64,000 nucleotides of DNA from a virus: IMG/VR virus record IMGVR_UViG_3300025684_000014, positions 59,668 to 123,667 of that record; one strand, written 5' to 3'. The first letter of the stretch is position 1. Each line of letters begins with the position of its first letter. The position numbers and the translations under genes are program-made. Below the pieces are notes generated by a model, which worked only from the letters and a program-made list of their open reading frames with translations, was not told the DNA's origin and did no database searches. This document shows, piece after piece, positions 8,656 through 60,727 of the stretch.

Positions 8656-10254
8656 ATGAATAGTCTTCCATATTTACAAATAGATGCAGAAAATTTAATT
8701 CCACATCCTTCTAATACTTACACTATTGTTTTAGATAAGTCTGAATTTTCTGAAAAGTTTCTATTGCAAACAGAGTCGTTTTCTTACAAAAATGATTCTT
8801 ACAAGAATGCTTTTCTTATAGTTTCTAAATATAAAAATATTATATCTGAAACAGCAGCTTTTTGTAATTGGATAGACACTTCCTACTCTCAAGAAGAAAT
8901 ACTTTTAACCTTTACTTCTTTTTTCAAAGTAAAGGTTAAACAAATTCTTTCTGGCAATAAACTTGCCTTTACTTTCCTATCTTTATCTGCTCATAAAAAA
9001 TATTATAATGATTTTTCTATTCTTTCTACTTATTTAAATTCAAATCTTTTATTTAAAGATTTTTTTATTTCTAAAGATAGAGAGAACTACAAAGATCCCA
9101 ATTACTTAAATAATATATATATACAACTATCTCCTCAGATAGACAAAGACTTTGAATTTTTCAATACTTCTAACCCTTCTAAACAATTAAATATTCTTTA
9201 TTCTTTATTATTAGAGACACAATTACTTTTAGAATTCCAAGAAGATCTATCGTTATCAAACGAATTATTTCCCAAAGAAGTTCTTATTAAATTAAAAAAA
9301 GAAAAAAAACGATTATCTAAAATGAATTCATCTAGTTCTGAATACTCAAATATTCAAGATTACATAGATCTTTTACTTGATATACCTTGGAATTCTTATT
9401 CTGAACAAACATTAAATCCAACTTTAATATCTAAAGAAATATCTAGTACTCACTATGGTTTAGAAAATGTTAAAGAAAATATTTTAGAGTACTTTTATCT
9501 TCACAAACTAACAGGCATAATGGATGGCGCCGTTCTTCTTTTCAACGGACCTCCAGGTACAGGAAAAACTACAATTGCCAAAGCTATTGCTAAAGCAACT
9601 AATAGAGAATTTATATCTATATCTTTAGCGGGTGTTGGCGATGAATCAGAAATTAGAGGCCACAGAAGAACTTACGTAGGTTCTAAACCTGGAAGAATAG
9701 TTTCTGCTATTGCTAATTCGAAAACTATGAATCCTATTATACTTATTGATGAATTAGACAAAATTAAACCTGACAAAGGAGATCCTTTTTCAGCTTTATT
9801 AGAACTTTTAGATCCTGAACAAAACTATGCTTTTATAGACAGGTATTTAGAAGTTCCAATCGATTTATCTAAAGTTACTTTTATATGCACTTCTAATTCT
9901 AAAAATAAAATTCCTGAACCTTTATTAAATAGATGTGAAATAATTGAATTTCAGAATTATTCTTTCGAAGAAAAAAAACACATTCTAATTAACTATATAA
10001 TTCCTAAAATCATCTCTAATTATAAACTTAAATCTTATAATATTATTTTTGAAAGTACTTTATTAGATTACTTGTCTAAACAAAAAGATTTAAGAAACTT
10101 AAAAAAGATAATTTCTAGATTACTAAGAAACAAAACCAAAAAGTTATTATTAGATAACTCTGACACCTTAATAACTTTAGAGCAGTATAAAAAAATATTT
10201 AACGTAACTACGCAAAATTCTACACGGAGAATTGGTTTTGCTACAAATATCTAG
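8656..10254 (+). CDS. Lon-type AAA+ ATPase lacking the C-terminal protease domain
   Basis: GPPGTGKT, EIRGHRRTYVGSKPG, ILIDELDK, LLELLDPEQN; ends soon after the ATPase module with RRIGF; no GPSAG catalytic motif. Confidence 0.9.
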   Translation: MNSLPYLQIDAENLIPHPSNTYTIVLDKSEFSEKFLLQTESFSYKNDSYKNAFLIVSKYKNIISETAAFCNWIDTSYSQEEILLTFTSFFKVKVKQILSGNKLAFTFLSLSAHKKYYNDFSILSTYLNSNLLFKDFFISKDRENYKDPNYLNNIYIQLSPQIDKDFEFFNTSNPSKQLNILYSLLLETQLLLEFQEDLSLSNELFPKEVLIKLKKEKKRLSKMNSSSSEYSNIQDYIDLLLDIPWNSYSEQTLNPTLISKEISSTHYGLENVKENILEYFYLHKLTGIMDGAVLLFNGPPGTGKTTIAKAIAKATNREFISISLAGVGDESEIRGHRRTYVGSKPGRIVSAIANSKTMNPIILIDELDKIKPDKGDPFSALLELLDPEQNYAFIDRYLEVPIDLSKVTFICTSNSKNKIPEPLLNRCEIIEFQNYSFEEKKHILINYIIPKIISNYKLKSYNIIFESTLLDYLSKQKDLRNLKKIISRLLRNKTKKLLLDNSDTLITLEQYKKIFNVTTQNSTRRIGFATNI

Positions 10255-11050: not shown

Positions 11051-11259
11051 AAATATATTGCTTAGATAGAGAAGATTGTTGCTTTTATCGTTATTTATCT
11101 GATGACGAATATAAAGTTTATGATTTTGATAAGCCATTTATTCACTGCGAAAATTGTGATTATGTAGCTTTAATTGTTCCTGACGATTTTGTTTTGGAAA
11201 ACAACTCCAAAACAAAATCATTAATTCTTTCAGCCTTAAACAAATTGGATAAACTTTAA
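11047..11259 (+). CDS. Small zinc-ribbon-like protein
   Basis: CLDREDCC and CENC motifs. Confidence 0.55.
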   Translation: MKIYCLDREDCCFYRYLSDDEYKVYDFDKPFIHCENCDYVALIVPDDFVLENNSKTKSLILSALNKLDKL

Positions 11260-13562
11260 TGTTTATAACAACTTATTTTGATAATTCACAACAAGATCTT
11301 ATTTTTCCCTATACCTTAAATAAGCATGGCATAGAAAAATGCATACAAGATCCTGATTATCTATTAAATTTTTTTGACGGTCGCGCTCATTCTATACCCG
11401 ACCTTCAATTATCTTTTTTAAATTCTCTTACTCAAAATTCTCAAATAACTACTTTTTCTACTTTATTAGATAAAATGAATCTTGAAAATCAAAATGAAAG
11501 ATTTGTTTTATCTGATTCTAATTTTTTTTCTACGGTTCTTTTTTCTGCTTTTAATAAGCAGAATAATTATAATATTACTACTAACTTAAGAAGATCTTTT
11601 AATTGGCGATATAATTTTAAAAATATCTCTAAATTTTATACTGAATTCTTTCTTTTTGATCAAGATGTTCATAATCGAAACTTAGAAAACGGTTATATTT
11701 GTTTTGATATTACACCAGATTTTAATCACTATTTTAACGAAGAAAATTTTGAATTAAAGTGTATTTCTTATTTAAAGAGAAATCTAATAGCTACTTTCAA
11801 TGATAAAAAAGTTTATTCTTTGATTTCAAAAACTTCTTATGATAACTATATTAAAGATATGGTTTTTCCAGAGGTTTTTGATTATTCAGAAATAAACCCT
11901 ACTAAAAATATAATTAATTTTGCTTCTTTAAGATCTACTTATCAGGCCAATCTTTTAGCATATTCTAAAGGAATTTTAATTAACTTTGATTTTGTATTTG
12001 AAAATAACTTATTTCAAGAAAAGCTAGAATCTTTAGATCAAACAAAAATTGATGTTATAAAAGTTCCTTCTTTTTCTTCAATTTCTAAAGACAATTTAAT
12101 TGAAAAAACTTCTTATACAAAAAATCAAGTCGTAAAAAGAAACACTTCTTTTACTCCTTCTTTTACTAAAATTAATGTTTTTGGTTTAAATTTTGAAATC
12201 GAAGAAATATATCTTTTAAATTTTTTCTCTCTTTATTCTCATTCTAATTTATCTTCAAGAAAACGTTCAGCTAGACGTTTTTTTGAATTTTATAATTTTC
12301 TTGTAGAAGAAGATTCTCTTCAAATTTTTAATAAAGATTTATATATCGATAGAATGAGACAAAAGTTTAAATCTTTGTTTATTTATTCTAGTGACTTCTT
12401 AAATAATCTTACTGATTCTCAAAAACAATATATTGTTAGTTTAAATCTTAAAAATAATTATAACCATTTTGATGAAAATTTAAATTCTTTAATTTTATCT
12501 TCTCCAAAAATTGATAAAAAGTTAGATTCAAAATACAAAAAGCTAAAAGAAAAAACCAACAAAAGCATTCTTTTTATGAATGATCGTTCTTCTTTGATAA
12601 ATAATTTACTTTACACTTCTGCTGAAATTAAAAAATTAAAAAAAGAGTTAGTTAAACTAACTCAAGATCTTGAAGAAAAATTGGCACAACAGAAAACTTA
12701 TTTTCAAAGATTTTCTACCGAAGCATCTTCTTTGTTTACTAATTATAATCTTTTTTTAACTATTAAAGATAAATATTTTAATGAATATGCTTCTGCTACT
12801 CAATATACTGTTGATCAATTTTTAAATAATTATAGTAATCAAGGAATAAATATAATTGATTTAAATTATACTTATCAAGATAATACTTATTCTATAAATT
12901 TTAAATCTTCTCAACAAGATGTAGCTAAATTTCTTCTTGCTAAAAAAGAAGGCGCTCTTCAGATTGAATCAATTACTTTTTCTACTTCTACCCCTACTAA
13001 AATAAACATTGTTGGTAATCAAGATTCCAGTGTTTATGGTGGGCCTTATGTTGTAAAAGTTACCAAGAATAGTATTAATATTTCTTTGAAAGATACTACT
13101 TCTATTTTTGGCTCAAACCTTTCTACTGGTGCTTGTTTTGTGCACCCTCACTCTGGCGCTACCAGCAGCATTGATAATCTTTATTATCCTAATTATTCTA
13201 GAGCTTGTTTAGGTGAAGCTTCCCCTTTGCTTTATAAAGCTTTTGAAGATAATGATATAAAACTTATTCTTATTTCTGCTATGACTTGGGTTTCTTCAGC
13301 TAACTCTGCTGATACCTGGGGGAAGAATTATATTTATTTTCCTAAAAAACTAGACATGATTCAACAAGAATCTAATTCAGTTTCTCTTTCTGATATTTCT
13401 GAAGAAGAAGTAATAGATTTTCTTTCTGTCTTTTCAGATGAGGATGAGGATGAAGACGATTCTCAACTTAATCAAAACGAACCCACCGATACAGTTGAGC
13501 AACAACCTGTTCAAGAAACACAAGAAACTGTTTACACAAGGTATACTGCTAATACGTTATGA
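11259..13562 (+). CDS. Large protein with coiled coil and C-terminal prokaryotic E2 (UBC)-like domain
   Basis: HPH (aa 629) ... CLG (Cys650), like the UBC HPN...CL motif; directly upstream of JAB and E1 genes; acidic tail. Confidence 0.65.
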   Translation: MFITTYFDNSQQDLIFPYTLNKHGIEKCIQDPDYLLNFFDGRAHSIPDLQLSFLNSLTQNSQITTFSTLLDKMNLENQNERFVLSDSNFFSTVLFSAFNKQNNYNITTNLRRSFNWRYNFKNISKFYTEFFLFDQDVHNRNLENGYICFDITPDFNHYFNEENFELKCISYLKRNLIATFNDKKVYSLISKTSYDNYIKDMVFPEVFDYSEINPTKNIINFASLRSTYQANLLAYSKGILINFDFVFENNLFQEKLESLDQTKIDVIKVPSFSSISKDNLIEKTSYTKNQVVKRNTSFTPSFTKINVFGLNFEIEEIYLLNFFSLYSHSNLSSRKRSARRFFEFYNFLVEEDSLQIFNKDLYIDRMRQKFKSLFIYSSDFLNNLTDSQKQYIVSLNLKNNYNHFDENLNSLILSSPKIDKKLDSKYKKLKEKTNKSILFMNDRSSLINNLLYTSAEIKKLKKELVKLTQDLEEKLAQQKTYFQRFSTEASSLFTNYNLFLTIKDKYFNEYASATQYTVDQFLNNYSNQGINIIDLNYTYQDNTYSINFKSSQQDVAKFLLAKKEGALQIESITFSTSTPTKINIVGNQDSSVYGGPYVVKVTKNSINISLKDTTSIFGSNLSTGACFVHPHSGATSSIDNLYYPNYSRACLGEASPLLYKAFEDNDIKLILISAMTWVSSANSADTWGKNYIYFPKKLDMIQQESNSVSLSDISEEEVIDFLSVFSDEDEDEDDSQLNQNEPTDTVEQQPVQETQETVYTRYTANTL

Positions 13563-14641
13563 ATTCAATTAAGCCTTTTTCTATTCTCAATAGAAACTTT
13601 TATATTTCTATTTCTAATAAATGTCATGAATCTTTTAAAAAGATTGTAGACATTGCTCCTCAAGAATCTCAATGGTTCAATACTGTTAATGAACTTTATG
13701 ATGAAGACGGAGAACTTATTTGTTTAGAGCTTGGTGATCAACTTTATATTCCTGAACAAATTTGTTCTGCTACTGAAGTAGATACTTCTCCTACCATGAT
13801 GATGGATTTTTACAAAGAACTTTTAAAGAGCCATACTCCTGAAGAAACTAATGAAATAATTTCTTCTATGAATTGTTGGAGTCACTCACATGTAAATATG
13901 TCTGTGAACCCTAGTGGCCAGGATGTTTCTCAATTTACTCAATTTGTAAAGCAATCCCAGGATCAGCAATGTAATAAATTTCAAATCATGCTTATTCATA
14001 ATAAGAAGGGAGATTATTATTCTAGAGTTTTCGATCCCTATACAAAACTTATTTACGAAGGTATTCCAGTTTATATAGATTCTGAATTTGATCTTTCTTA
14101 TATTGAAGAAGCTGCTAAAGTTAAATTTAAAAAGAAAGCTTTACCTTCTTCTCTTAAGAATCCTTATGTAAATTCTTCTAAATTTACAGATCTTTTTTCT
14201 CTTTCGTCTTCTAAAGCTTACTCTCCTCTAGAAGATGAAGAAGATTTATCAAAAGTTAATGAAGCTTTGAGTAAAGATCTATTAAATCAAATTTACCACA
14301 CTACTAATTTAAATACTAAAGTTAAACTCAGTAAGAAAGACTCTGTTTTAGCTTACAGTTTACTCACTAATGAGTTTGATCAACAAGAGTTGCTTTGGTT
14401 TTACTTTTTAATTTCTGGAAATAAAGATAAAATTCCAAAGTTTTCTTCTTTAGAAAAAGTTGATCATTTCTTTTTAAACAATCAAAACGTTACAGGCGTT
14501 AAAAACTTTATAATAGATTATTTTAACAAAACCGCTGACACTTTAGCACATCTTCATGAAATTTTTTACACTGTACATTCTCTTACTGACGCCCCTACTA
14601 TTAATAAGTTAAAAGAAATTGTTGAGGATTTGACAATATGA
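13559..14641 (+). CDS. JAB/MPN+ metallopeptidase (deubiquitinase-like)
   Basis: Glu36 and HSHVNMSVNPSGQD = HxH-x7-S-x2-D JAMM motif. Confidence 0.85.
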   Translation: MNSIKPFSILNRNFYISISNKCHESFKKIVDIAPQESQWFNTVNELYDEDGELICLELGDQLYIPEQICSATEVDTSPTMMMDFYKELLKSHTPEETNEIISSMNCWSHSHVNMSVNPSGQDVSQFTQFVKQSQDQQCNKFQIMLIHNKKGDYYSRVFDPYTKLIYEGIPVYIDSEFDLSYIEEAAKVKFKKKALPSSLKNPYVNSSKFTDLFSLSSSKAYSPLEDEEDLSKVNEALSKDLLNQIYHTTNLNTKVKLSKKDSVLAYSLLTNEFDQQELLWFYFLISGNKDKIPKFSSLEKVDHFFLNNQNVTGVKNFIIDYFNKTADTLAHLHEIFYTVHSLTDAPTINKLKEIVEDLTI

Positions 14642-15336
14642 CTCAAGTAAATTTTATGAGGCACGCATCATATTTTGGCCCTGAAGATGCTGCTGACAAA
14701 ACGCTTACTATTATTGGTGCAGGTGCTACTGGCTCTTGGGTTGCTTTAATTGCAGCAAAAATGGGTTGGCACAATTTTTCTATTTGGGATTCTGATATTG
14801 TTGAATCACACAATTTGCCAAACCAGGTTTATGGTGTTGAGCATATTGGTATGCAAAAAGTAGATGCTTTAGAGCAAGTACTAAAAGCTTTTAATCCTCA
14901 ATGTTCTGTTGAAAAGCACAATGAATTTTTTATTGGTTCTAATGAAGATCACAAAAGCTCATTAGAAGATTATGTTTATGTTGCTGTAGATTCTCTTTCG
15001 GCTAGAAAAGATATCATTTCTAATTGCTTTCATTTACCCTTTACAGATCTTATTTTCGAAACTAAAATGGGCTTTGAGCATGCAGAAATCAATATATTCT
15101 CTCCTTCAAACGAACAAGCTATGAACTCTTATCTTGGAATGCTTAAAAGCGATGACGAGGTGGAGGAAAGCGCTTGCGATGCTAAAATCATAACTACACT
15201 TACCACTATCGTGGCTTCCACTTTAGTACATGCTTTATGTGGCCATGCCTCTCTTTCTCGAAGAGGCAAAAATACTTTTTACGATTCTAAACAAATTATT
15301 TCTCTTCAAGATAAATTAACCACTATCTCTTTTTAA
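14638..15336 (+). CDS. E1-like ThiF/MoeB-family adenylyltransferase
   Basis: IIGAGATGS, DSDIVESHNLPNQ, KVDAL, AVDS; no CxxC zinc pairs; candidate catalytic Cys180. Confidence 0.92.
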   Translation: MTQVNFMRHASYFGPEDAADKTLTIIGAGATGSWVALIAAKMGWHNFSIWDSDIVESHNLPNQVYGVEHIGMQKVDALEQVLKAFNPQCSVEKHNEFFIGSNEDHKSSLEDYVYVAVDSLSARKDIISNCFHLPFTDLIFETKMGFEHAEINIFSPSNEQAMNSYLGMLKSDDEVEESACDAKIITTLTTIVASTLVHALCGHASLSRRGKNTFYDSKQIISLQDKLTTISF

Positions 15337-15345
15337 GGATAAAAA

Positions 15346-15546
15346 ATGGATACACCTACAATGAATCAACGAATTCAAGCTTTAATCGACCAGCTTCAAG
15401 CATCTCTTTCCGATGCTGATCGTTTTGATCGAGGTCAGAATGCTGCAGGTATTAGAATTAGAAAGCTCGCTCAAGATGTAAAAGTTGAATGTCAATCTAT
15501 TCGTAAAGATATTCAAACAATTCGCGATTCACGCAAAAACTCTTAA
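15346..15546 (+). CDS. Small helical-hairpin protein, Hc1/histone-H1-like family
   Basis: F.RGQNAAGIRIRK...KV...IRKDIQ pattern. Confidence 0.6.
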   Translation: MDTPTMNQRIQALIDQLQASLSDADRFDRGQNAAGIRIRKLAQDVKVECQSIRKDIQTIRDSRKNS

Positions 15547-15560
15547 TTTAAGGAAATATT

Positions 15561-15776
15561 ATGTCTACTATTACTCTTGTTGTTATTCCTGGCCCTGGTG
15601 CCCGCACCGTAACTGTTCCTGATGGAATGACTGTTGAGCAACTTGTTGTTCAAGAGAATCTTCATGGAAGAGATATTATCGTTAATGGAGAAGGTGTTTC
15701 TCCTGGAACTTATTCAAGTACTCTTGTTACTCCAAGCTCTGAAATCTTTGCTACAGGTTCAGTAAAAGGTAACTAA
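15561..15776 (+). CDS. Ubiquitin-like beta-grasp protein (single domain)
   Basis: 71 aa; MTVEQL, IIVNG and EIF beta-grasp pattern; ends VKGN; adjacent to E1/JAB. Confidence 0.85.
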   Translation: MSTITLVVIPGPGARTVTVPDGMTVEQLVVQENLHGRDIIVNGEGVSPGTYSSTLVTPSSEIFATGSVKGN

Positions 15777-15781
15777 TTTTT

Positions 15782-16081
15782 ATGGGTGCTGAAACTTTCT
15801 ACGAGTTTTCTTCTGGAAAAACAGCCAAAGAAGCTTTTAGCAAAGCAGTTAAAGACGCTGCTTATCAATATGGTCACTCAGGATATACTGGATCTATTGC
15901 TGAAAAAAGTGATTTTTCTATGGTTACTGAAAAGACTTTTTCTTCTTCTGAAGCATGGAACCTTGCAAGGTCTTTAATTAGCACTGATTATTCAGATAAA
16001 TGGGGGCCTGCTGGATGCATACAGGTTCAGTCTGATTCTCAACAAAATATTTATCTTTTCTTTGGCTGGGCTTCTAGCTGA
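15782..16081 (+). CDS. Conserved-looking phage hypothetical protein
   Basis: GHSGYTGSIAEK, DKWGPAG, LFFGWASS motifs. Confidence 0.7.
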   Translation: MGAETFYEFSSGKTAKEAFSKAVKDAAYQYGHSGYTGSIAEKSDFSMVTEKTFSSSEAWNLARSLISTDYSDKWGPAGCIQVQSDSQQNIYLFFGWASS

Positions 16082-16100
16082 TAAAATTTATAATTAAAAT

Positions 16101-16307
16101 ATGTCTAAAATTAATTTAATAAATGTAAATAAAAATTATCGATTAACTATAGCTTACCCAAAAGTACTTTCTTTACATCAATTCCTTTTTGATAATAATT
16201 CTTTGGGCTATAGAGCTATAGTTAATGGTAGAGATATATGTCGGAATGATTGGAAATATACTGTTTTACAACCAAATTCCGATGTACACTTACTTCAACA
16301 CTTTTAA
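16101..16307 (+). CDS. Divergent Ubl-like protein without a C-terminal Gly
   Basis: AIVNGRDI...W..TVL.PNSDVH aligns with IIINGQGI...W.STIVPSDAEVF of the Ubls. Confidence 0.55.
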   Translation: MSKINLINVNKNYRLTIAYPKVLSLHQFLFDNNSLGYRAIVNGRDICRNDWKYTVLQPNSDVHLLQHF

Positions 16308-16333
16308 TTTATTTGTTATAGAAAGATTTTATT

Positions 16334-16972
16334 ATGTCTACAATTACACTTGTTGTTATTCCTGGCCCTGGCGCTCGCACTGTAACCATTTCTGACTCTG
16401 CTACTGTTGCAGATCTTGCTTGCCAAGAAAACCTTCATGGTCGTGACATTATCATTAACGGTCAAGGCATCTCTCCTTCTCAATGGAGTTCTACTATCGT
16501 TCCTTCTGATGCAGAAGTCTTTGCTACTGGCTCAGTAAAGGGCAATACTAGTTCTGCAACACTAGTTGTGATTCCTGGTCCTGGCGCTCGAACTGTTTCT
16601 CTAGATGACTCTATGACGGTTAGTGATCTTGTTTGTCGTGAGAATTTGCATGGTCGTGACATTATCATTAATGGCGAGGGAATTTCTCCAAACCATTGGG
16701 AGACTCATCAAATTCCAGAAAACGCAGAGATCTTTGCTACTGGTTCTGTGAAGGGCAATACTGATATCGCGACCCTCGTCGTCATTCCTGGCCCTGGTGC
16801 AAGATCAATAACTCTTTCTCAAGATATGACTGTTGCAGATTTGGTTTGCCGTGAAAACCTTCATGGTCGCGACATCATTATTAACGGACAAGGTGTACCT
16901 CCAACTTCTTGGGAAACTACTACTGTCCCCCCTTCTTCAGAAATTTTTGCAACCGGCTCTGTAAAGGGCAAT
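16334..16972 (+). repeat. 3 x 213-bp imperfect tandem repeat; a fourth copy lies at 15561-15773
   Basis: Units 16334-16546, 16547-16759, 16760-16972 with many synonymous differences. Confidence 0.9.
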
Positions 16973-16975
16973 TAA
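16334..16975 (+). CDS. Tandem triple ubiquitin-like protein (poly-Ubl)
   Basis: Three exact-length 71-aa repeats, each ending ATGSVKGN. Confidence 0.9.
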   Translation: MSTITLVVIPGPGARTVTISDSATVADLACQENLHGRDIIINGQGISPSQWSSTIVPSDAEVFATGSVKGNTSSATLVVIPGPGARTVSLDDSMTVSDLVCRENLHGRDIIINGEGISPNHWETHQIPENAEIFATGSVKGNTDIATLVVIPGPGARSITLSQDMTVADLVCRENLHGRDIIINGQGVPPTSWETTTVPPSSEIFATGSVKGN

Positions 16976-16990
16976 TAATATAGAGTCAAT

Positions 16991-17266
16991 ATGATTTTTG
17001 TAACAGCTATTGGTGATTCAGCAAAGAAAGCATATTTAAACGCAAAAGAAGAAGATTTGATGTGGGCTAATTATAATGAAGATCATATCCAATCTGTTGA
17101 CTTAACTAAGCGTTATTTTATTCTTTCTGTAGATGTTTTTGAATCAAAGGAAGAAGCCATTCAATTTGCTTCTTCCTTTGATTATTCTACAATTAAATAT
17201 CGTAAAAATACTTCTGGCGCATTAATTCTTACTAACGATACTTACTTGTTTTTTACTCTTCCATAA
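16991..17266 (+). CDS. Hypothetical protein, diverged paralog of 15782..16081
   Basis: GDSAKKAY vs GKTAKEAF; FESKEEA vs FSSSEA; YLFF near both C-termini. Confidence 0.55.
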   Translation: MIFVTAIGDSAKKAYLNAKEEDLMWANYNEDHIQSVDLTKRYFILSVDVFESKEEAIQFASSFDYSTIKYRKNTSGALILTNDTYLFFTLP

Positions 17267-17973
17267 TTTTAAAGGTTTTTATATGTCTACAAATAAGCTT
17301 ACTGCAATTCTTATTACTGGCGATGTTGATTCTGTTATCAAAGCTGTTAATTCCTTTGATTTTTCTTCTGCTGAAAACCAAACAACAAAGTTGGCTTTCC
17401 AAGACATTTCAAATGATCTTTGTCAAGAAGATAATTCTGTAGAGTATTCTGCTTACACTTGGAACTTTACAGATCAGGACATTAATCAAAAGCAAAACAC
17501 TGCTGCAAAGATGTATCTTGCTAAGAACCCTATTGTTCGTTTTGATAATCTTATGAATTATATTGGCAATACTACTAACCTTAAACCTTCTAATGCAGCG
17601 CTTTCAAACTTTCTTCGAAAGAATAACTATCAAAGAAAGCTTGTTAAAAATCTTGCACTCGGCACTACAAGAGTTATCTGGAAGAAAGCTTAATTATGTT
17701 TCCTGATTGTTTTACAAAAAAACAACTTTCAGAATATAGTTTTCTTTTTTGCTTTGACCTAAATAAAGTTCCGACTACTTCTCAGCAAATTTTAAAACTT
17801 GCTGAATTGATTACTTCTTTAGAAAAACAAAATTATATTTGTTCTGTAAAGCCAGATAAACGTCTTAGAGCAAATGGTCTTTTTGTTGTTTTTGCTAATA
17901 CTTCTCAATATTATTCTGATCTCAAATCTAAGCGACAAAAAGTTTTAAAAGCTTGGGATATTAAATAATAATA

Positions 17974-58744: not shown

Positions 58745-60727
58745 TTATATATCTAATACTACATAAGCTAAAGAAAGTTCACTATTTCTTTTAATAAAAT
58801 TACGAGCACTTTCAGCTGCTGATTGTGAACCTAAATTACTTGCGGTTAAATTTTTAACATCAAATCCATATACTCCAATACTTAAAGCATCTATATATGA
58901 GTAATAAGTAGTTCCTGTTGAATAATTAGGATCTATATCCAATAAGTCTGAGCAAAGTTTATTTTGATCTTCTTGTATAAGAGGAAATGGCTCTACTCCT
59001 GCATTTAAATATCTTTTTAACTTTGATCCAACAGTAGCAATACTTTTGCTTCGTAAACTTTCTGACCATTCTTCAAAAGTAAAATTACTTAACAAATTGT
59101 TTGAAACAGAGTTTATAAAAACACTTCTAATCAAATCCAAACCTGTTAATCCAGAATCTTCTTCTTGGAAATAGTTTTTTGGCATAGCTATAACTGCATT
59201 AGAAATACCTCTAGAAAGCAATATTTCTTTAGGCGCTATTACTAACTCATCTCCTACATTATAGTCTCCTAAAATCATTATTAATGTTTCTCCGCCGCGT
59301 TTAACATGACTGTAAGGGTGCTGTTGCTTCCATGTTAAATTTTCAAAGCTTGGATTAACACCAACAAAACTATTTTCATTCCAGATTAAATAATCTTCTG
59401 CAATTTCTGTTTCAAAAGAAATATCTTCTCTAGATACTCCAAGAACTTTCCCCCATCTCTTTTTGCCAAATTTATCTTTATAAGTATTCTTAAGAGAAGT
59501 ACTGTAAACAATGTTATTGTCTTCAAGATTGCTTCTTGTTGATGCTTTTAATGCGTTTTCATTAGTTAAATTTACAAGCTCATTGTATCCAAGTAATGTA
59601 AAAGGAATATATTTTTCAAATAAAATAGGATTAGTAGATAACAAATTTGTTGTTACTAAACTCAAACCATCACTTTTACTTTTATTCCCAGTAATTTCCC
59701 AACTATCGCTATATTTTCGATATGCTAGTTCTCTTACTGGATCAAAGTAATTTTGAGGATTAAGTAAATTTCCTAAACCTTCAATATCACTATTCGATTC
59801 TCTAGTGTAAAACTTATTACTTCCACTTACGTATTCGTTAGCAACGATCTTTCCATTTTCAACAGTAAGTATTTTTCCTTCACTGTTTTGAAAATCAACT
59901 TCTCCTTCTAGTTGATTTATAGAAGTTACTGCTTCTGGTATCTCTGGAGTATTGTTAATATTATTATAATCAATATTATTATTAACAAATGCGTTACCGT
60001 TCCATACTAAACTTTGCCCTTCAATTGGGTCTACTAAAAATACATCGTTGTGTATTGATACAGAAGTGTTTGCTAAACTTGTTTCTATTATTTCATTTGA
60101 AATACTCAATGATGGATATTCACTTCCATCGTCAAGTTCATTAATTAAATTAAGGTTGTGCCCTTGAACTACTTGAGTCAAAATTTCATATAAATGTTTT
60201 GAAAGACTCCAGTTCCTTGTAGCGTCTGTACTACATTCTAATAGATGATTAATACCTAAAGCGTCTTTTTGGACTCGCTCAAGGTTTGCTGCATTGCATC
60301 TTATTTGCTCCCAAAGGCTACTTACATCTACAGTTGATTCTCTTATTTCAATTATCCTATCAATCAAACTAGCTTGTAAATAATCAAATGATTCTTTAAC
60401 TGTACAAGGCCTTCCAGTTTCTAAATCATTTTCTTTCTTCCAGTAAAGTTCTGTATTGAATTTATCATTACCTTCTTCTTCTGGATATGTTACCAAAGTA
60501 AGTCCGTTTATTCCTGACTCTACTGCGTCGTAAGGATATCTTGGCTTACTTGTTAAACTTTTAAATCCTGGAACTAAAACCATGTTTATGTAATTACTGA
60601 TTTTTACTAAATCACTTTGAGTTCTTTTTGAATTCAAAAACAATAGATCTTTATTATCTGCATTTGTAATTACAGAACTGTTTACTATTATAGGATAGTT
60701 TAAATTATTTAGATAATTTGTAGCCAT
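58745..60727 (-). CDS. Putative virion structural protein
   Basis: 660 aa; DV.L.DP.EGQSLVWNG fibre-type repeat. Confidence 0.55.
   Translation of the reverse strand: MATNYLNNLNYPIIVNSSVITNADNKDLLFLNSKRTQSDLVKISNYINMVLVPGFKSLTSKPRYPYDAVESGINGLTLVTYPEEEGNDKFNTELYWKKENDLETGRPCTVKESFDYLQASLIDRIIEIRESTVDVSSLWEQIRCNAANLERVQKDALGINHLLECSTDATRNWSLSKHLYEILTQVVQGHNLNLINELDDGSEYPSLSISNEIIETSLANTSVSIHNDVFLVDPIEGQSLVWNGNAFVNNNIDYNNINNTPEIPEAVTSINQLEGEVDFQNSEGKILTVENGKIVANEYVSGSNKFYTRESNSDIEGLGNLLNPQNYFDPVRELAYRKYSDSWEITGNKSKSDGLSLVTTNLLSTNPILFEKYIPFTLLGYNELVNLTNENALKASTRSNLEDNNIVYSTSLKNTYKDKFGKKRWGKVLGVSREDISFETEIAEDYLIWNENSFVGVNPSFENLTWKQQHPYSHVKRGGETLIMILGDYNVGDELVIAPKEILLSRGISNAVIAMPKNYFQEEDSGLTGLDLIRSVFINSVSNNLLSNFTFEEWSESLRSKSIATVGSKLKRYLNAGVEPFPLIQEDQNKLCSDLLDIDPNYSTGTTYYSYIDALSIGVYGFDVKNLTASNLGSQSAAESARNFIKRNSELSLAYVVLDI

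Follow-up and report, generated by a model that had tools for sequence, protein, structure and literature searches.

Background

Eukaryotic ubiquitin genes comprise polyubiquitin genes, such as yeast UBI4 and human UBB and UBC, and ubiquitin-ribosomal protein fusions. In the present study, a gene of comparable layout was analyzed in an uncultured marine phage, namely the tri-Ubl gene (16334..16975, plus strand; 213 codons and a stop codon) of the IMG/VR virus record IMGVR_UViG_3300025684_000014, which encodes three ubiquitin-like (Ubl) units of 71 amino acids (aa) arranged head to tail. Coordinates refer to the window, the whole stretch of 64,000 nucleotides (nt) from position 59,668 to 123,667 of that record, and all window genes described below lie on the plus strand. 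As in eukaryotic polyubiquitin, the units follow one another without a spacer, each unit carries a complete tail, and at least one cap residue is present after the last unit; as in eukaryotic ubiquitin genes, the copy number varies, the tag also occurs as an N-terminal fusion to small proteins of unrelated kinds, and a dedicated peptidase is needed. Unlike polyubiquitin, however, the gene belongs to a virus of bacteria, a JAMM enzyme is the candidate peptidase, the tail reads S-V-K-G-N with a single Gly, and the sequence is nearer to ThiS and SAMP2 than to ubiquitin. Moreover, eukaryotic units are near-identical through concerted evolution, whereas the phage units have diverged, with saturated synonymous change. 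Herein, we propose that the tri-Ubl gene probably encodes a processed polyubiquitin-style precursor, whichever of two adjacent bonds is cut.

Ubiquitin-type operons have also been described in bacteria. According to the report on Type II Bil (PMC10557695), the operon-encoded JAB peptidase BilC of Ensifer aridi cuts the Ubl BilA between Gly97 and Ala98, one residue before its end, and BilA homologues carry up to nine residues beyond the conserved Gly. The phage operon resembles Type II Bil, as described there, in that a JAB gene shares an operon with a Ubl gene, and distant relatives of the phage Ubl end in K-G-A. In contrast, Bil is a bacterial anti-phage defence, whereas the present operon is phage-borne, and the activating enzyme (E1) of Bil comprises an inactive and an active adenylation domain together with a mobile Cys domain (PMC10557695), whereas the phage E1 has 232 aa and one ThiF domain. 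The phage domain resembling a conjugating enzyme (E2), unlike in Bil, forms the C-terminus of a larger protein (693-1115 aa). Of the Bil gene set, an E1 is recognized in the phage operon by Pfam ThiF and a JAB protein by its invariant JAMM motif; an E2 is suggested by a motif and weak fold matches (Z at most 3.3). No Bil-type model of PADLOC matched the phage Ubl, and the E1 scored 20.7 bits against a cut-off of 144.75 with the PRTRC cassette model (NCBIfam TIGR03736). By the features tested, the phage operon is not a member of Bil, PRTRC or CBASS.

Three-domain Ubls ("Ubl3" or "polyUbl") encoded in Bub and Type II Bil operons assemble as homodimers and as filaments that depend on Ca (PMC11601603), and tandem bacterial Ubls were called reminiscent of poly-ubiquitin by Iyer et al. 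in 2006 (PMC1779556). Like bacterial Ubl3 as described in these reports, the phage gene encodes three tandem beta-grasp domains and lies beside E1-, E2- and JAB-type genes. Ubl3 is treated there as one modifier, whereas the phage units keep full tails, have linkers that are predicted to be disordered, number 1 to 4 per gene and also occur as separate genes; this distinction follows the published description of Ubl3. A literature search, with supplementary tables outside its scope, found no description of a phage poly-Ubl. Prokaryotic ubiquitin-type tagging has so far been characterized as cellular and mostly as anti-phage defence; here, a phage carries what appears to be the whole kit, and its tag genes repeat two eukaryotic hallmarks, head-to-tail precursors and tag-cargo fusions, together with an almost lysine-free tag.

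Organization and divergence of the tri-Ubl gene

Unit 1 of the tri-Ubl gene (aa 1-71) spans 16334..16546 with its tail K69-G70-N71 at 16538..16546, unit 2 (aa 72-142) spans 16547..16759 with K-G-N at 16751..16759, and unit 3 (aa 143-213) spans 16760..16972 with K-G-N at 16964..16972, followed immediately by the stop codon. In the list of open reading frames (ORFs), neither unit 2 nor unit 3 has a start codon of its own. A solo 71-aa Ubl representing a second paralogue lineage is encoded at 15561..15776, and the alignment of the three units with the solo Ubl is free of gaps, all four ending in ATGSVKGN. Pairwise identity among the units is 65-72% for protein and 63-70% for DNA, and the units of like position in different phages partly cluster, so that the near-identity expected from concerted evolution is not seen. 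Nei-Gojobori estimates gave a proportion of synonymous differences (pS) of 0.51-0.74 and a ratio of nonsynonymous to synonymous change (dN/dS) of 0.08-0.32, the latter being rough because synonymous sites are near saturation. The units evolve under purifying selection. The eight tail codons show synonymous differences across all four copies; therefore, what is conserved is the protein motif and not the DNA.

A DNA-level repeat or gene conversion is ruled out by the DNA identity and by the synonymous differences in the tail codons. Tandem Repeats Finder reported nothing on the tri-Ubl repeats, as expected for copies less than 70% alike. An assembly artefact is likewise ruled out, since a 3,847-base contig from a second metagenome run (labelled X2, independent of the protein X2 described below) spans 15942..17300 with 4 differences, all beyond 17099, and thus covers the whole tri-Ubl gene with zero differences. 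The original prediction, made from this DNA, had described three exact 71-aa units ending like the stand-alone Ubl in ATGSVKGN, and had taken their synonymous divergence as an argument against an assembly artefact and for selection on the protein. The length and the common ending are indeed exact, the sequences are not, and the dN/dS comparison among the units, which the prediction had asked for, supports the precursor reading. As a separate observation, the protein P0001 from another assembly is a 209-aa tri-Ubl variant that is identical until the third unit (about 16900 in the window) and then continues in another frame, which reflects either a sequencing error or a natural frameshift variant.

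The amino acid composition of the units is also unusual in its Lys content. Each unit has a single Lys, K69, and the 272 residues counted outside it contain none, against 7.3% Lys in genome ORFs of at least 150 aa (P ~1e-9 for lysine-free Ubl units) and 5.6-9.2% in X1, X2, E1, JAB and the E2-like protein. Among the 362 complete units collected from relatives and the window, 311 have no Lys besides K69. Judged from composition, this lysine desert fits a tag that would serve lysine-directed conjugation and would itself be no ligase target. The desert would also suit a different reading, which we consider decidedly unlikely, namely that the units stay joined, the protein working as a preformed linear chain or as a fixed Ubl of several domains, while the JAB peptidase trims the last cap or removes tags from targets. 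With no Lys for chain building, an encoded chain could substitute. Furthermore, Ubls with three domains are common in Bil and Bub operons and form dimers and Ca-dependent filaments, no cutting being mentioned in the accessible part of that report (PMC11601603), and the partial clustering of like-position units across phages points in the same direction.

Junctions and unit number among the relatives

Relatives of the operon were collected by scanning IMG/VR with an alignment of the E1, the Ubl not being used, which yielded 11 contigs (the E1-selected loci). Ubl genes lie directly downstream of the E1 in 11/11 of these contigs, with PhoH further on in all 11, and the E2-like and JAB genes precede the E1 in 10 of the 11, the remaining contig (L005) ending 654 bases upstream of the E1. 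In addition, a protein search returned 130 clusters of similar length as well as 10 clusters of longer proteins (383-387 aa, corresponding to four units plus an X domain), and a search of representatives returned 76 clusters at E <= 0.001, mostly mono-Ubls of about 70 aa ending in K-G-N or K-G-A.

The unit model matched 198 of the 204 proteins collected, and 8 incomplete last units were left out of the count of ends. All 180 internal junctions read K-G-N (173 ATGSVKGN, 6 ATASVKGN and 1 ATGSLKGN), a count that is biased, because the query by which most homologues were retrieved included the tail; the loci selected by the E1 show the same junction picture. Loss of the Gly at internal junctions of homologues had been named beforehand as an observation that would speak against a precursor, and the Gly was retained in 180/180. 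Complete last units end their tail with K-G-N or K-G-A in 190/190 cases, followed by nothing, by 1-5 residues, by 6-40 residues or by an X domain; 46/198 proteins end exactly at position 71 and none at position 70. Since the residues at the junctions and at the ends are the same eight, a JAB enzyme trimming the ends should also cut inside, which argues against units that stay joined, the more so as ends of this kind require cleavage in the relatives with tails or cargo.

The unit number per gene among the relatives, which had been proposed for comparison at the outset, is 1, 2, 3 or 4 and differs even between close relatives. For example, L010 carries three separate mono-Ubl genes, L007 two mono-Ubls, and L011-L013 one plain mono-Ubl each. 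A mono-Ubl with a basic tail accompanies a two-unit gene in L003, a mono-Ubl accompanies a three-unit gene with a 12-aa tail in L004, and a two-unit gene accompanies a tailed mono-Ubl in L005 and L006. L008 has one tailed mono-Ubl and L009 one two-unit gene with a basic tail, and in L002, L014 and L016 two, three or four units are fused to an X domain. Both the variable copy number and the occurrence of the same units as separate genes in L010 are difficult to reconcile with a permanently joined protein.

In the unit tree, units 2 and 3 of the window fall together in an 8-row clade (support 97/88), and the solo Ubl falls in a separate 11-row clade (97/82) with mono-Ubls that bear a basic tail or X1 in relatives. 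The two-unit protein P0024 has a first unit 89% identical to unit 1 of the window, and the X-fused proteins P0002, P0014 and P0121 differ by the presence or absence of one distinct unit type, with breakpoints exactly at unit boundaries. By these comparisons, the Ubl units appear to act as modules that are gained and lost at exact boundaries. A more distant protein, P0189 (284 aa, 34% identity), has four units each ending in K-K-I-K-G-N, three stretches of which were matched in the search; the poly-Ubl layout with K-G-N junctions thus seems to recur far outside the tri-Ubl clade. Another side observation concerns the cluster representative P0151 (212 aa), in which about 157 unrelated N-terminal residues precede residues 17-71 of the L002 mono-Ubl. 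The N-terminal part recalls a capsid protein by eye, and the protein could be a chimeric assembly or a real fusion.

Cargo behind the K-G-N site

The tag is also found in front of other proteins. In the window, X1 (15782..16081; 99 aa, function not assigned) is a stand-alone gene beginning 5 nt after the stop codon that follows the K-G-N of the solo Ubl. In relatives, including P0133 and proteins of 239, 311 and 383-387 aa, X1 is fused directly behind the K-G-N of 1 to 4 Ubl units, the fused X domain behind the Asn measuring 95 aa. To judge from these arrangements, gene fission or fusion of X1 falls exactly at the K-G-N site. X2 (16991..17266; 91 aa) lies just downstream of the tri-Ubl gene, and its homologues come after the poly-Ubl gene in L003 and L004. 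By blastp, one ORF of L005/L006 matches both X2 (2.6e-13) and X1 (6.3e-05), and the two proteins appear to be paralogues of one unnamed viral family, each standing behind a Ubl gene. X1 matched no Pfam, PHROG or NCBIfam family, and its look-alikes in the Atlas are unnamed viral clusters. An estuary contig of about 99% identity from a further run (X6) has an extra G behind 16001, within X1, which represents either a frame shift of the C-terminal part of X1 in that strain or an assembly error.

Tails provide a second kind of cargo. In L008 and L009, the sole Ubl gene within 8 kb of the E1 carries 27 residues beyond K-G-N; therefore, the E1 substrate in these loci needs cleavage. More broadly, solo-type Ubls of relatives have a conserved basic tail rich in Gly, Arg and Pro of about 25-33 aa after K-G-N, as in L003 (8922-9209), L007 (9859-10155), L008 (9351-9650), L009 (9333-9839) and L010 (10101-10415), and the solo Ubl of the window is without one. 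If cut off, such a tail would become a free basic peptide.

Fold, linkers and nearest sequence families

An AlphaFold2 model of the tri-Ubl protein, built with 25 aligned three-unit relatives as input, shows three beta-grasp domains of the order beta-beta-alpha-beta-beta(-beta), with a mean predicted local distance difference test (pLDDT) of 77.7 and a predicted template modelling score (pTM) of 0.39. The pLDDT is about 70-90 in blocks within the domains and falls below 50 solely at 68-72, 138-143 and 210-213, which are the three tails. Foldseek returned 90 matches in the PDB at E <= 0.001, headed by linear tetra-, tri- and di-ubiquitin and ISG15, with a best E of 3.6e-11 for the linear poly-ubiquitin group and weaker values for the others. 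The modelled units thus have the ubiquitin-like beta-grasp fold, and each has a flexible C-terminal tail with a conserved Gly, which always precedes N or A. In the model, the linkers between the units look flexible or disordered. With the low pTM, no fixed arrangement of the three domains is predicted, contrary to what would be expected of units that stay joined as a multidomain Ubl.

By sequence, the nearest families of the Ubl are ThiS and SAMP2, with every score under the family cut-off. The Ubl unit scored 21.8 bits with Pfam ThiS (cut-off 22.5) and 32.6 bits with NCBIfam thiS (cut-off 37.45), the Ubl profile reached ThiS in the PDB at E 0.0087, and the PDB matches of this profile included no Bil Ubl. 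These scores raise the question of a sulfur-carrier or cofactor pathway of the ThiS/MoaD-ThiF/MoeB type, in which JAB would unmask the carrier. JAB is reported to unmask a sulfur carrier in the CysO-Mec+ pair, several homologues are labelled "sulfur carrier protein ThiS" by JGI, and the phage pair resembles ThiS/MoaD and ThiF/MoeB in that the beta-grasp protein is small and has a flexible Gly tail and the E1-like enzyme is minimal, at about 230-250 aa. However, the tail ends in K-G-N and not in G-G, and no thiazole or molybdopterin synthase, rhodanese or desulfurase match was found among the ten neighbour proteins scanned. Unlike the sulfur-carrier systems, the operon keeps a large E2-like Cys protein with an invariant H-P-H...C-L-G together with a JAB gene, and the lysine desert, the several tandem copies and the cargo fusions would have no role in such a pathway. 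We therefore regard a sulfur carrier as highly improbable.

The candidate processing peptidase

The JAB/JAMM-motif peptidase (13559..14641; 360 aa) is the candidate processing enzyme, as suggested by its motif and by the complex model described below. E36, H109-S-H111, S119 and D122 are invariant in 12/12 homologues, among them the positions E36 and H109, which the original prediction had named as targets for mutation. PADLOC gave weak JAB matches (best E 9.3e-05), whereas no Pfam match and no PDB sequence match was found for the protein, and a JAB profile returned nothing among PDB sequences at E <= 1.

Residues 1-195 of JAB were modelled together with a mono-Ubl, both supplied as custom alignments, alongside three controls. 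The interface score (ipSAE) was 0.82, a value reached by 58/80 solved complexes and 2/110 mismatched pairs, and the best of the 3 controls scored 0.00; because like complexes have already been solved, such a pass shows likeness and not binding. Contact agreement between runs was at least 79%, and the pLDDT of the partners was at least 88. The predicted interface includes E36, H109, S119 and D122 of JAB and residues 7-14, 33-45 (in part), 63 and 65-71 of the Ubl. The complex model thus supports a placement of the Ubl tail at the JAMM site.

The predicted contact surface is conserved in each unit. Among the 25 three-unit proteins, 22 positions never vary and hold the same residue in all three units, and 17 of these 22 lie within the JAB-contact set. 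Per unit, 19-21 of the 24 contact positions are invariant, compared with 7-8 of the 47 others (Fisher P 8e-7 to 3e-9), a comparison that is partly circular, because the supplied alignments favour conserved surfaces in the interface. Retention of the whole predicted enzyme-contact set in all three units again argues against units that stay joined.

Proposed mechanism and site of cleavage

From the sequence anatomy, the conservation, the gene order and the fold, we infer cleavage, its bond and a subsequent conjugation as follows. The tri-Ubl gene would yield a single translation product, in which three beta-grasp units are joined by their own flexible tails alone. The JAB metallopeptidase would bind each unit and cut at each S-V-K-G-N junction, the bond between Gly70 and Asn71 being the most likely site, thereby freeing three monomers and stripping the terminal Asn cap. 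The 232-aa E1 would then adenylate the freed Gly carboxylate, and the tag would probably pass via Cys180 of the E1 and Cys650 of the E2-like domain to lysines of targets. The solo Ubl would be processed likewise, and in relatives so would the cargo behind K-G-N, that is, the X domain or the basic tail. That the gene encodes a processed precursor is favoured for several reasons: no difference is seen between the internal junctions and the ends that need cleavage in L008 and L009, each unit keeps the features of a free tag while the linkers look disordered, and the units also exist as separate genes with cargo split exactly at the site. For the full scheme, with the JAB cut between Gly70 and Asn71 followed by activation and conjugation of the tag, we see about an even chance.

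If the cleavage is real, the polyubiquitin layout would have arisen independently, or very early, outside eukaryotes. With its four to five proteins, the operon would also be a simple model in which to study how a precursor is processed and a tag activated, and the question of what the phage tags, whether its own proteins, host proteins or components of host defence, would be raised. Since K69 stands before the terminal Gly, trypsin would leave a remnant of Gly or Gly-Asn; therefore, the targets and the cut site can be tested by mass spectrometry.

Several observations weigh against this proposal. First, Asn71 is as invariant as Gly70 in this clade (362/362 units), which seems odd for a residue that would be discarded, and 0/190 complete last units in the collected sequences end at Gly. 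Second, the start of X1 may fit a cut after Asn slightly better, in that fused X starts with G-A-E or G-S-E right behind the Asn and stand-alone X1 starts with M-G-A-E. Third, the E1 is without the extra domains of Bil-type and eukaryotic E1s, and the E2 fold of the 767-aa protein is weakly supported by modelling (best Z 3.3). Fourth, the junction count and the contact conservation carry the bias and the circularity mentioned above, and the pass of the complex model may mirror a resemblance to solved complexes of the JAMM-ubiquitin type. Finally, by analogy, bacterial three-domain Ubls, as described in PMC11601603, would suggest a fixed filament-forming protein.

Of the original prediction of a precursor cut within KG-N, the precursor is backed by the junctions, the unit number, the selection, the cargo fusions and the models, whereas the stated bond is the likelier of two candidates, Asn71 being as invariant as Gly70 in the clade. 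A processed precursor could instead be cut after Asn71, leaving a mature tag that ends in K-G-N (K-G-A in distant relatives), with the E1 activating the Asn; proteins that stop at the Asn would then need no trimming. We consider this rather unlikely, although it accounts for a number of observations. Asn71 is invariant in the clade while the next residue is free or absent, many proteins stop at 71 and none at 70, and stand-alone X1 minus its Met would equal a fused X cut behind the Asn. Ubiquitin-type precursor peptidases usually read the tag side and tolerate anything past the cut, which also speaks for this reading. Moreover, the E1-like MccB reportedly activates a peptide substrate with a C-terminal Asn, and MccB is among the PDB matches of the phage E1 (E 8e-4). 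The microcin C system (MccA/MccB) is similar to the phage operon in pairing an E1-superfamily enzyme with a substrate whose invariant last residue is Asn.

However, the MccB match is weak and covers E1 residues 5-93 only, the Rossmann part, and the phage E1 (232 aa, compared with 348-358 aa in MccB chains) is without the N-terminal peptide-clamp region. The microcin C substrate is also a short peptide, whereas in the phage a JAB gene and an E2-like gene are present and position 71 is Ala in relatives. To our knowledge, every characterized E1-Ubl pair activates a C-terminal Gly. The wider family is represented by 51 diverse mono-Ubls, whose invariant positions are limited to P10, G13, K69 and G70, with N or A at position 71; that K69 and G70, and not position 71, are invariant there favours the bond between Gly and Asn. 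The loci of the K-G-A type share the operon, and Bil offers the precedent of a one-residue cap beyond the Gly (PMC10557695). The K-G-A relatives were considered as a test of the cut site through a possible loss of JAB, and were uninformative, as L028 and L030 keep an operon of identical make-up, JAB included. On balance, a cut between Gly70 and Asn71 is moderately favoured over one after Asn71.

A more elaborate form of the cut after Asn71 would have the Asn-ended tag activated by a minimal ThiF-type E1, much as MccB activates a heptapeptide, to give for instance a succinimide or isoaspartyl-type link, with the Ubl units doubling as polyprotein release modules. We hold this to be improbable; if true, it would imply a conjugation chemistry without a known ubiquitin-like counterpart, and X domains and basic peptides delivered by a phage polyprotein.

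Distribution of related operons

Returning to the preferred Gly70-Asn71 precursor and its operon, near-identical DNA was found in marine and estuary metagenomes, with 10 further runs containing at least 0.7 of the sampled words. Neither blastn of 13559..17000 nor tblastn of the tri-Ubl protein gave a match in 50,697 GenBank phage records. In the same records, tblastn of the E1 matched 80, all below 60% identity, two of which were inspected. In a Xanthomonas phage record, a 70-aa ORF after the E1 has no K-G-N end. In Flavobacterium phage FpV4 (NC_041872.1; L026, 658-4669), an ORF with a JAMM motif directly precedes a ThiF-like E1 that is 25.5% identical, and the N-terminus of an upstream 289-aa ORF looks Ubl-like by eye and is followed by G-G. 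By hhalign against the FpV4 proteins, the Ubl profile (E 0.14) and the E2-like profile (E 0.062) were not significant, and the relation to FpV4 is a lead only. Among 185,579 species genomes, one locus (L014) was found, a 158,217-base contig with the same phage-type operon in a metagenome-assembled genome labelled Bacteriovoracaceae. This contig is probably a phage binned into a bacterial genome and says nothing on the host.

Other genes of the operon

The contig to which the window belongs has 123,667 bases and 34.5% G+C and carries tail-fibre-like, ribonucleotide reductase and primase-helicase genes (PHROGs). Upstream of the Ubl cluster, the E2-like, JAB and E1 genes follow one another with overlapping ends; after the E1, the order is Hc1-like, solo Ubl, X1, degenerate Ubl, tri-Ubl and X2. 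The E1-like adenylating enzyme (14638..15336; 232 aa) has a single ThiF domain at residues 16-217 (Pfam ThiF E 3.8e-24, 85.6 bits, cut-off 28.1), and its nucleotide-binding G-x-G-x-x-G as well as D118, R123 and C180 are invariant in 13/13 homologues.

The 767-aa protein (11259..13562) has a C-terminal E2-like domain at about aa 570-700, as suggested by its motif and weak fold matches, and H629-P-H631 and C650-L-G are invariant in 12/12 homologues. The model of this domain has a pLDDT of 77. Foldseek returned nothing for it at E <= 0.001, and in VIA-align the best Z was 3.3 (E2S; root-mean-square deviation 3.6 A over 96 residues), about 26 of 45 rows being E2 enzymes by title. Because no Foldseek match was found and the VIA-align scores are weak, the E2 fold is a lead and is not established.

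The Hc1-like basic protein (15346..15546; 66 aa), resembling histone H1, was assigned by Pfam Hc1 (E 3.8e-10, 39.9 bits, cut-off 23.5). A homologue occurs at the same place in 8/11 E1-selected loci and is absent in L011-L013, each of which has a single plain Ubl. Between X1 and the tri-Ubl gene, a degenerate 68-aa Ubl paralogue (16101..16307) is without the P-G-x-G loop and the K-G-N tail. It matches the hidden Markov model of the unit over positions 4-62 and the solo Ubl by blastp (E 3.9e-07), contains 4 Lys and has a very long branch in the unit tree; no orthologue was found among the other loci compared.

Within 15200..17500, promoter-like sites number 10, against 7.4 +/- 2.6 in shuffled sequence, and terminator-like sites number 4, against 1.2 +/- 1.2, all 4 being within coding sequence. 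Two metatranscriptome libraries of one study contain contigs of 151-185 nt identical to 16037..16360 and nothing over the remaining region, and these short contigs do not demonstrate transcription. At the head of the gene block, a Lon-like AAA+ protein is encoded at 8656-10254 (PHROG 15585, E 8.6e-96), and homologues of it are present upstream in the loci with long enough flanks (L003, L011-L014 and L028).

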